A stretch of DNA of 64,000 nucleotides from NCBI RefSeq assembly GCF_048403405.1, contig NZ_CP183129.1; one strand, 5' to 3'. Made by a program: the position numbers and the translations under genes. Source of the stretch: Escherichia coli (lineage in GTDB: Bacteria > Pseudomonadota > Gammaproteobacteria > Enterobacterales > Enterobacteriaceae). Of this stretch, positions 11,185-37,295 are shown piece after piece (the stretch's first letter is position 1; the number at the start of each line of letters is the position of its first letter). The notes under the pieces were generated by a model. The model ran no database searches, was not told where the DNA came from, and saw nothing but the letters and a program-made list of their open reading frames with translations.

Positions 11185-11505
11185 ATGGAAAAGAAACACA
11201 TTTATCTGTTTTGTTCTGCGGGCATGTCTACCTCTTTACTGGTATCAAAAATGCGCGCACAGGCAGAAAAATATGAAGTTCCGGTCATTATTGAAGCATT
11301 TCCGGAAACACTGGCTGGTGAAAAAGGTCAGAATGCCGATGTCGTGTTATTAGGGCCGCAGATTGCTTATATGTTGCCCGAAATCCAGCGTTTGTTACCC
11401 AACAAACCGGTTGAAGTAATTGACTCGCTGCTTTATGGCAAAGTCGATGGTTTAGGCGTGCTTAAGGCTGCGGTTGCAGCGATTAAAAAAGCCGCAGCAA
11501 ATTAA
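11185..11505 (+). CDS. chbB: PTS chitobiose-specific EIIB component
   Basis: 106-aa ORF; first gene of the chbBCARFG arrangement. Confidence 0.9.
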
Positions 11506-11518
11506 TTTATTTTAAATT

Positions 11519-11535
11519 TTCCCGTCAAAGAGTTA
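11519..11535 (+). promoter_or_regulatory. ChiX sRNA pairing site in the chbB-chbC intergenic region
   Basis: cccgtcaaagag is complementary to the ChiX segment CUCUUUGACGGG (recalled from memory); the chbBC spacer is a described ChiX target/decoy. Confidence 0.55.
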
Positions 11536-11589
11536 TTTCATAAATCAATACCGCAATATTTAAATTGCGGTTTTTAAGGGTATTTTTCT

Positions 11590-12948
11590 ATGAGTAATGT
11601 TATTGCATCGCTTGAAAAGGTACTCCTCCCTTTTGCAGTTAAAATAGGAAAGCAGCCACACGTTAATGCAATCAAAAATGGCTTTATTCGCTTAATGCCG
11701 TTAACCCTTGCGGGGGCCATGTTTGTATTAATTAACAACGTTTTTCTAAGCTTTGGGGAGGGGTCGTTTTTTTATTCCTTAGGTATTCGCCTGGATGCCT
11801 CAACCATTGAAACACTTAATGGTCTGAAAGGTATTGGCGGCAACGTATATAACGGAACATTAGGGATAATGTCTTTAATGGCACCGTTCTTTATTGGCAT
11901 GGCGCTGGCAGAAGAGCGTAAAGTCGATGCGCTGGCGGCTGGGTTGTTATCCGTTGCAGCATTTATGACCGTCACCCCATATAGTGTCGGTGAGGCCTAT
12001 GCGGTTGGCGCAAACTGGTTAGGTGGGGCGAATATCATCTCCGGGATTATTATTGGCCTGGTGGTGGCAGAAATGTTTACCTTTATTGTCCGCCGCAATT
12101 GGGTCATTAAATTGCCCGATAGCGTACCTGCTTCAGTATCGCGTTCCTTCTCGGCTTTAATTCCCGGCTTTATTATTCTTTCCGTGATGGGGATTATTGC
12201 CTGGGCGTTGAATACCTGGGGCACCAACTTCCATCAGATCATTATGGATACCATCTCAACCCCACTGGCATCGTTGGGTAGCGTGGTGGGCTGGGCCTAT
12301 GTGATCTTTGTTCCACTGCTCTGGTTCTTCGGTATTCATGGTGCGCTGGCGCTGACCGCACTGGACAACGGCATTATGACGCCTTGGGCGCTGGAAAATA
12401 TCGCGACCTATCAGCAATATGGTTCCGTCGAAGCGGCGCTGGCAGCCGGTAAGACCTTCCATATCTGGGCCAAGCCGATGCTGGACTCCTTTATTTTCCT
12501 CGGTGGCAGTGGTGCGACTTTAGGCCTGATCCTGGCTATCTTTATCGCCTCTCGCCGTGCTGATTATCGTCAGGTGGCAAAACTGGCGCTGCCGTCCGGC
12601 ATCTTCCAGATTAACGAACCGATTCTGTTTGGTCTGCCAATTATCATGAACCCGGTGATGTTTATCCCGTTTGTACTGGTACAACCGATTCTGGCGGCAA
12701 TCACCCTCGCAGCGTACTACATGGGCATTATTCCTCCGGTGACCAATATTGCACCGTGGACCATGCCAACCGGTCTGGGAGCCTTCTTTAATACCAACGG
12801 TAGCGTCGCCGCATTGCTGGTCGCACTCTTCAACCTTGGCATCGCAACGTTAATTTATCTGCCCTTTGTTGTGGTCGCTAACAAAGCACAAAATGCGATT
12901 GATAAAGAAGAGAGCGAAGAAGATATCGCTAACGCCCTGAAATTTTAA
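11590..12948 (+). CDS. chbC: PTS chitobiose-specific EIIC permease
   Basis: 452-aa polytopic membrane ORF. Confidence 0.9.
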
Positions 12949-33240: not shown

Positions 33241-33322
33241 AACGCCATCAAAACATTGACTTTTATCGCCGTAGCCTTTTCAATAAAGGTCTTTTGAAAA
33301 GTACCAAAAGGTAACGCAAGCA

Positions 33323-33367
33323 ATGAATGCTGCTATTTTCCGCTTCTTTTTTTACTTTAGCACCTGA
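33323..33367 (+). CDS. pheM: pheST attenuator leader peptide (14 aa, 5 Phe)
   Basis: atg aat gct gct att ttc cgc ttc ttt ttt tac ttt agc acc tga = [14 protein letters not shown]; not in the ORF track (too short). Confidence 0.85.
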
Positions 33368-33413
33368 CTCCAGGAGGCTAGCGCGTGAGAAGAGAAACGG
33401 AAAACAGCGCCTG

Positions 33414-33440
33414 AAAGCCTCCCAGTGGAGGCTTTTTTTG
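33414..33440 (+). terminator. pheST attenuator terminator
   Basis: aaagcctccc-agtg-ggaggcttt hairpin followed by ttttttt, between pheM and pheS. Confidence 0.75.
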
Positions 33441-33463
33441 TATGCGCGTTTTGAAAAAATTAA

Positions 33464-36895: not shown

Positions 36896-37195
36896 ATGGC
36901 GCTTACAAAAGCTGAAATGTCAGAATATCTGTTTGATAAGCTTGGGCTTAGCAAGCGGGATGCCAAAGAACTGGTTGAACTGTTTTTCGAAGAGATCCGT
37001 CGCGCTCTGGAAAACGGCGAACAGGTGAAACTCTCTGGTTTTGGTAACTTCGATCTGCGTGATAAGAATCAACGCCCGGGACGTAACCCGAAAACGGGCG
37101 AGGATATTCCCATTACAGCACGGCGCGTGGTGACCTTCAGACCCGGGCAGAAGTTAAAAAGCCGGGTCGAAAACGCTTCGCCCAAAGACGAGTAA
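36896..37195 (+). CDS. ihfA: Integration host factor alpha subunit
   Basis: 99-aa [55 protein letters not shown]... Confidence 0.95.
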
Positions 37196-37208
37196 TCTGA
37201 TCTAACTA

Positions 37209-37239
37209 AAAAGGCCGCTCTGCGGCCTTTTTTCTTTTC
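37209..37239 (+). terminator. Intrinsic terminator after ihfA
   Basis: aaggccgctctgcggcctt hairpin followed by ttttcttttc. Confidence 0.75.
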
Positions 37240-37295
37240 ACTGTCGAAGAGTCACCGTAAAATCAACGCCATGACACTTCAGCAGAACGGATACC

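Follow-up and report, generated by a model that had tools for sequence, protein, structure and literature searches.

The chbBCARFG operon of Escherichia coli leaves 84 nt between its genes chbB and chbC, and the question raised by this locus is what this intercistronic spacer does. The window, meaning the whole 64,000-nt stretch of DNA that was analysed, belongs to the E. coli chromosome: a 1-kb query covering positions 11100-12100 matches many complete E. coli genomes at 100% identity and was found in 5422 of 5426 genomes, where both flanking ORFs are annotated as chbB and chbC. The gene order osmE, chbB-C-A-R-F-G, katE, taken from the ORF list and the RefSeq annotation of identical DNA, places the spacer between chbB and chbC of this operon, which is the position of the chbBC anti-ChiX decoy. 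The spacer is identical at 84/84 positions to that of K-12 MG1655 (1821215-1821298, minus strand), and it comprises or adjoins the following features.

11185 to 11505, + strand: chbB coding sequence, the upstream cistron, PTS IIB component of 106 aa (ORF and RefSeq annotation of identical E. coli DNA)
11503 to 11505, + strand: chbB stop codon (ORF)
11506 to 11589, + strand: chbB-chbC intercistronic spacer, 84 nt (ORF boundaries)
11506 to 11520, + strand: U/A-rich leader directly 5' of the box, UUUAUUUUAAAUUUU (sequence)
11521 to 11532, + strand: core ChiX-complementary box CCCGUCAAAGAG, predicted to pair with ChiX nt 58-47 (sequence and duplex prediction)
11535 to 11541, + strand: second helix AUUUCAU, predicted to pair with ChiX nt 44-38 (cofold MFE and duplex prediction)
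11550 to 11571, + strand: hairpin ACCGCAAU-N6-AUUGCGGU, 8 bp, -10 kcal/mol, followed by UUUU (covariation and RNAalifold)
11576 to 11580, + strand: chbC Shine-Dalgarno (SD) sequence AAGGG, 9 nt ahead of the ATG (read from the sequence)
11590 to 12948, + strand: chbC coding sequence, the downstream cistron, PTS IIC component of 452 aa, with its ATG at 11590 (ORF and annotation)

Read in order, the spacer is ...aaattt tcccgtcaaagag ttatttcat aaatcaat accgcaatatttaaattgcggt ttttaaggg tatttttct ATG..., and the AAGGG of the chbC SD is almost invariant in the spacer alignment. The preliminary description had presented the element as one that protein-centric annotation overlooks, and indeed the RefSeq annotation of MG1655 places no feature within the chbB-chbC spacer. 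No Rfam covariance model matches the spacer at the gathering score either; the only matches at that score in the 64-kb window are RprA at 61968-62075 (-), the Phe leader at 33317-33441 (+), and STnc540 at 37137-37295 (+). As a separate observation, an IS1A insertion splits chbC just 3' of the spacer in several E. coli strains (E100341, AST19, and EC0026B derivatives).

We conclude that the spacer is very probably the chbBC intercistronic anti-ChiX decoy, also named 'trap' or 'sponge', of the E. coli chbBCARFG operon. This element is already known and is a textbook case, so that no new biology is claimed for it. The small RNA sequence used here was taken from MG1655 (L001:1205-1288), chiX being outside the window, and is recognized by Rfam as sroB with 82 bits. 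Its nt 47-58 are CUCUUUGACGGG. The complement to the ChiX seed had earlier been placed, as cccgtcaaagag, at 11521-11532 on the + strand, and we find CCCGTCAAAGAG at exactly this position, forming 12/12 Watson-Crick pairs with ChiX nt 47-58. Complementarity to the seed (the CUCUUUGACGG region) is accompanied by a stable predicted duplex of -28.1 kcal/mol between spacer and ChiX, which is the outcome that the proposed duplex check was expected to give. The layout of this duplex is 12 bp, a 2x2 internal loop with UU opposite C46 and U45 of ChiX, and 7 bp. The pairing first described, limited to the 12-nt core, is right as far as it goes, but it included neither the second helix nor the conserved hairpin, nor the invasion of the terminator stem of ChiX, all of which are discussed below. 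Cofolding of ChiX with the spacer gives a ddG of -20.7 kcal/mol relative to both monomers, and the box is predicted to be mostly single-stranded in its mRNA context (±100 nt), with a mean P(unpaired) of 0.72.

The sequence directly 5' of the box is U-rich in every box-bearing species, with the three T's ahead of the box at least 90% conserved. Targets of class II sRNAs, such as ChiX, contact the Hfq rim, which recognizes UA-rich RNA, and the leader 11506-11520 may provide such a rim contact. We also considered a long-range helix between the CCC of the box (11521-11523) and the GGG of the chbC SD (11578-11580), which appears in the MFE structure of the spacer alone and which, if true, would couple ChiX binding to SD accessibility. 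These positions are paired in 95.6% of the alignment, the only double change being C-G to U-A in one clade. We did not adopt this helix, because a helix of three pairs around a 54-nt loop would be thermodynamically marginal and the double change is confined to that single clade.

Several controls address whether such complementarity could arise by chance. The 12-mer occurs once in the window; by arithmetic assuming uniform base composition, about 0.008 exact occurrences would be expected in 2 x 64 kb. A pattern control allowing at most one mismatch gave at least one match in 32 of 100 shuffles and is hence weak on its own. We then scanned the single-stranded segment of ChiX against 40-nt windows on both strands of the 64 kb (n=25,586); unrestricted RNAduplex runs of full-length ChiX against long targets were dropped, as they gave long spurious duplexes. 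With -28.1 kcal/mol, the chbB-chbC site comes first of the 25,586 windows; the background averages -8.0 (sd 2.6), and the best unrelated site after it has -20.7 kcal/mol. Among 1000 shuffles of the spacer, the mean is -8.65 (sd 2.63) and the minimum -19.1, which gives the real site a z of -7.4. In the same window, a U-rich stretch inside chbC (11741-11785, +) is predicted to pair with the A-rich part of ChiX at -20.2 kcal/mol; base composition, and not a second ChiX site, most likely accounts for this.

We surveyed the box across species by a ChbC search of genome contigs, which gave 80 species-level loci, and extracted every chbB-chbC spacer. The genera include Escherichia, Salmonella, Citrobacter, Enterobacter, Klebsiella, Raoultella, Kosakonia, Leclercia, Lelliottia, Buttiauxella, Cedecea, Proteus, and others. 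In 73 of the 80 species, the spacer has a ChiX-complementary box of 9 nt or more, which ends 51-57 nt from the chbC ATG, while its surroundings diverge. The variants are distributed as follows.

Exact 12-mer CCCGTCAAAGAG: 52 of 80 loci
CCGTCAAAGAG: 6 loci
CCGTCAAAGA: 9 loci
CGTCAAAGA: 1 locus
CCAGTCAAAGAG: 5 loci, all Proteus species
Box absent: 7 loci, namely five Kosakonia, one soil MAG grouping with them, and Klebsiella sp. BIGb0407

The box-less spacers (L022, L023, L024, L026, and L027 of Kosakonia, L051 of the soil MAG, and L081 of Klebsiella sp. BIGb0407) pair with E. coli ChiX at -7 to -11 kcal/mol, which is the background level. They keep the hairpin and the SD except for L081, whose spacer is unrelated. 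A shortened box without second helix, UCCGUCAAAGAA or, in L065, UUCGUCAAAGAA, characterizes a clade of Buttiauxella, Dryocola, Cedecea sulfonylureivorans, and relatives (L042, L065, L067, L070-L072, and L076-L079). Cedecea neteri and C. davisae (L064 and L069) carry the 11-mer CCGTCAAAGAG, likewise without second helix.

On the side of the sRNA, ChiX was recovered beside ybaK in four genomes, starting from the best 120 YbaK proteins: Buttiauxella sp. B2 (the same assembly as L042), B. warmboldiae, E. asburiae, and S. enterica. ChiX nt 41-60 (AAAUUCCUCUUUGACGGGCC) are invariant in all four. In the Buttiauxella clade, ChiX (L083:1292-1373(-) and L085:57-141(-)) keeps the seed but has ACAAAUU in place of AUGAAAU. 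MicM (= ChiX) of Proteus mirabilis has been published as UGAAAAAUUCCUCUUUGACUGG; where ChiX G56 has become U, the Proteus box has A for C, and the longer A-run of this MicM has its counterpart in AAUUUUUCA of the spacer. The second helix is kept in Escherichia, Salmonella, Enterobacter, and Klebsiella, re-made in Proteus, and absent in Buttiauxella, where the pairing consists of the core only (10-11 bp) and the second helix is kept in neither RNA. The predicted duplex energies are the following.

E. coli, cognate pair: -28.1 kcal/mol
Salmonella, cognate pair: -28.2 kcal/mol
Enterobacter, cognate pair: -27.3 kcal/mol
Proteus, cognate pair: -30.9 kcal/mol
E. coli ChiX with Proteus spacer: -21.4 kcal/mol
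Proteus ChiX with E. coli spacer: -16.1 kcal/mol
Buttiauxella, cognate pair: -16.6 kcal/mol

The ChiX seed is invariant where the box is invariant, and the change in Proteus is compensatory, as expected for a box that co-evolves with its sRNA. What this analysis shows directly is the sequence and its duplex with ChiX, how unique that duplex is statistically in the window, how it is conserved, and how it covaries between the two molecules.

The survey also brought up some unrelated peculiarities. Spacers of Klebsiella, Raoultella, and one Enterobacter sp. (L034, L035, L044-L046, L054-L057, and L059) are 147-169 nt long, owing to an insertion of about 65-85 nt that follows the chbB stop and precedes the box; it carries its own variable inverted repeat and begins with a conserved motif close to TTTAATTTTAAAACTCG. 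The spacer of Kosakonia oryziphila (L026) has a GC-rich, repeat-element-like insertion of about 147 nt, placed after the hairpin and ahead of the chbC SD. An assembly titled Chryseobacterium sp. 18061 (L039) contains an enterobacterial chb locus, with a ChbC 87% identical to that of E. coli and a spacer that hardly differs from the one in 'Citrobacter sp. 18056' (L041), a record of the same project, and is probably mislabelled or contaminated.

Pairing in vivo, ChiX decay, and de-repression of chiP are reported in the literature, from which all of the functional evidence comes. The chbBC intergenic anti-ChiX (MicM) decoy of E. coli and Salmonella was reportedly described by Figueroa-Bossi et al. 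and Overgaard et al., both in 2009. Compared with this decoy or 'trap-mRNA', our site has the same operon, the same spacer, and the same pairing layout, and we see no difference; the spacer matches the K-12 spacer that was studied experimentally, the published maps having been compared via secondary sources. A preprint (10.64898/2026.05.19.726096) has the identical 84-nt spacer as its natural sponge scaffold, 'ChbBC', and gives for it an IntaRNA interaction 'matching reported binding interactions'. Its template, '...TTTTCC[core]TT ATTTCAT AAATC...', corresponds to core, 2-nt mismatch, and second helix, so the core / TT / ATTTCAT layout agrees with the preprint's map, and with the primary map as far as secondary sources convey it, in line with the published pairing to which the preliminary description had referred.

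According to reviews, the chb spacer pairs with ChiX, promotes its degradation, and relieves chiP. In a genomic-library screen, 25/25 chiP-derepressing clones bore the chbBC intergenic region (IGR). The ChiX-chbBC interaction was recovered by RIL-seq (Melamed et al. 2016), and the supplement of a 2025 RIL-seq/iRIL-seq study lists K-12 chimeras of ChiX with 'chbC.chbB.TU', with 1503, 313, and 16 fragments. On the chb side, these map to 1821158-1821600, 1821105-1821276, and 1821229-1821263, ranges that cover or adjoin the spacer, the last one corresponding to window positions 11541-11575. In Proteus, over-expression of the IGR lowers MicM (= ChiX) and raises the ChiP homologue. The claim that induced chb mRNA acts as a decoy that destroys ChiX is accordingly backed by reviews, primary reports, RIL-seq chimeras, and the over-expression in Proteus, and nothing that we found contradicts the decoy role. 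The RIL-seq table also contains 274 chbB-RyhB chimeras at window positions 11204-11394 (MG1655 1821410-1821600), in the chbB coding region, which suggests that a second sRNA, RyhB, contacts the chb mRNA within chbB.

A comparison with the regulated target indicates what may distinguish a decoy. The chiP (ybfM) leader site of MG1655, ACGUCAAAGAGGAU, pairs with ChiX nt 45-56 at -21.0 kcal/mol; it overlaps the SD, and its end lies 7 nt ahead of the chiP ATG. It shares with the chb box the common core CGUCAAAGAG and uses the same ChiX seed, so that the decoy mimics the target. The chb site, by contrast, pairs with ChiX nt 47-58 and 38-44 at -28.1 kcal/mol and lies at least 49 nt from the chbC ATG. 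At the 3' edge, an SD-like GGA in chiP is replaced in chb by the mismatch and then the second helix. At the 5' edge, chb has CC (11521-11522) where chiP has UA, and the chiP pairing stops at G56, whereas C11521 is predicted to pair with G58 and C11522 with G57 of ChiX. These two residues form the bottom pairs of the ChiX terminator stem (G57-C76 and G58-C75), so the predicted pairing of the decoy reaches ChiX's 3' terminator region. We infer that, in E. coli, this 2-bp invasion of the terminator is what makes the difference between a target and a predator. Imposing both additional intermolecular pairs has a predicted net cost of +1.4 kcal/mol, and in the MFE cofold the terminator of ChiX stays intact, with only 10 of the 12 core pairs formed; terminator invasion is therefore energetically marginal in silico.

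Other natural sponges show similar principles. ChiZ, derived from the chiP 5' UTR (Adams et al. 2021) and annotated just 5' of chiP in MG1655, also sequesters ChiX via the same seed, but it is a discrete small RNA from a 5' UTR, whereas the chb site lies within a polycistronic mRNA under chb transcription. SroC (derived from gltIJKL, a sponge of GcvB) and 3'ETS-leuZ (a sponge of RyhB and RybB) are, like chb, spacer or processed-transcript sponges of Hfq-dependent sRNAs. They are excised stable fragments that act through RNase E, in contrast to chb, which is reported to inactivate ChiX as an intact mRNA, via remodelling of the ChiX 3' terminator and PNPase.

Outside the box, the spacer also has a conserved structure, the hairpin 11550-11571, which lies 5 nt ahead of the SD AAGGG. 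In the alignment of 53 spacers, 95.7% of the cells at its paired positions are paired, and five of the eight pairs have changed on both sides; in slid controls, with the 3' partner moved by 1-3 columns, pairing drops to 24-57%. RNAalifold independently recovers the inner five pairs. Since the hairpin is kept in the box-less Kosakonia, its role is independent of ChiX. The preprint on the synthetic scaffold (10.64898/2026.05.19.726096) describes it as a stem loop that is probably important, and our literature search found no described function for it. A reading as intrinsic terminator is not supported on the + strand, where a terminator consensus scan made no call at 11550-11571. Nor is the U-tract kept across genera: four or more U's follow the hairpin only in Escherichia and a few others, most genera having AUUUAAGGG or CUUUAAGGG. 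We tentatively propose, at a rather low probability, that the decoy is a three-part module made of the U/A-rich leader, the box with its second helix, and the covarying hairpin, the role of the hairpin being possibly undescribed. The hairpin might shield the 3' end of a chbB-spacer sponge that arises by processing or termination, or else keep chbC translation unaffected by the binding of ChiX and Hfq.

Different readings of the same site have to be weighed against the decoy. That the complementarity is a functionless chance match in an AT-rich spacer is hardly conceivable: the one-mismatch shuffles leave room for it, but the match is exact, is extended by a second helix, and ranks at the top of the window with a z of about -7.4. 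Its constant place amid diverging flanks in 73 of 80 species, its covariation with ChiX in Proteus, and the published experiments likewise refute this reading. We regard it as unlikely that the hairpin and its U-tract act as a partial intrinsic terminator or a 3'-end protector, the real sponge then being a short chbB-spacer RNA. The strong covariation of the hairpin and the four or five U's behind it in E. coli would fit such an RNA, as would the model of the Proteus paper, which invokes processing that releases the IGR RNA, and an iRIL-seq chb fragment (11541-11575, 16 chimeras) that ends exactly at the end of the U-tract is a weak hint in this direction. Nevertheless, the U-tract is poorly conserved and uncalled on the + strand, the hairpin is present in Kosakonia without any ChiX box, other chimeras run well past it, and the 3'-end-mapping supplement of Adams et al. 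2021, under the growth conditions of that study, has no chbB or chbC entry.

The regulation might also run, mainly or additionally, in the reverse direction, as the preliminary description had it in stating that the site lets ChiX silence chbC: abundant ChiX would lower chbC output at basal chb expression and thereby set the threshold of induction. We consider this quite possible, with the balance somewhat against it. It is compatible with the decoy role; the outcome would depend on the ratio of both RNAs. The abundance of ChiX-chb chimeras in RIL-seq (1503 in one library) may speak in its favor. A modest ChiX-dependent down-regulation of chb was reportedly observed by Plumbridge et al. in 2014. 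The papers covered by our literature search gave no repression data for chbC. On the other hand, the pairing ends at 11541, 49 nt 5' of the chbC AUG, and a stable hairpin stands before the SD. The footprint of the 30S subunit extends roughly from -35 to +19; the pairing is outside this ribosome-binding window, and direct translational occlusion of chbC is therefore unlikely. Silencing would instead need RNase E recruitment or Rho-dependent polarity, and such indirect mechanisms are possible. A PNAS article of 2023 names chbC as a target of ChiX, but the only source that it cites for this, reference 47, is the 1997 cel-operon paper.

With the decoy as the preferred reading, the following mechanism can be proposed. 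Without chitosugars, constitutive, Hfq-dependent ChiX would pair across the SD of the chiP leader and keep the chitoporin silent. Chitobiose would induce chb transcription, so that spacer RNA accumulates, and the box 11521-11532 with the second helix 11535-11541 would pair with ChiX nt 47-58 and 38-44, occupying the seed that is also used on chiP. The chb duplex is predicted to be longer and more stable than the chiP duplex (-28 versus -21 kcal/mol), and its 5' edge would reach G57 and G58 at the bottom of the ChiX terminator stem. Remodelling of the terminator would, according to the literature, expose ChiX to 3' exonucleolytic decay, upon which ChiX would fall and chiP would be de-repressed.

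To our knowledge, chbBC and ChiX provided the first case in bacteria of an sRNA being sponged by part of an mRNA, and this pair is still the reference case. The chbBC spacer now also serves as a scaffold for synthetic sponge RNAs. Its detection here indicates that RNA-RNA regulatory sites left unannotated in RefSeq can be spotted from sequence. The additions made by this analysis are modest, namely the contrast between decoy and chiP at the terminator edge, the survey of the box in 80 species, the intermolecular covariation in Proteus, and the covariation of the hairpin. Given the short pairing in Buttiauxella and the loss of the box in Kosakonia, the element is not universal among chb operons, and Kosakonia, which lost the box, as well as Buttiauxella and its relatives, with a box of 10-11 bp, may have rewired the control of chiP by ChiX.
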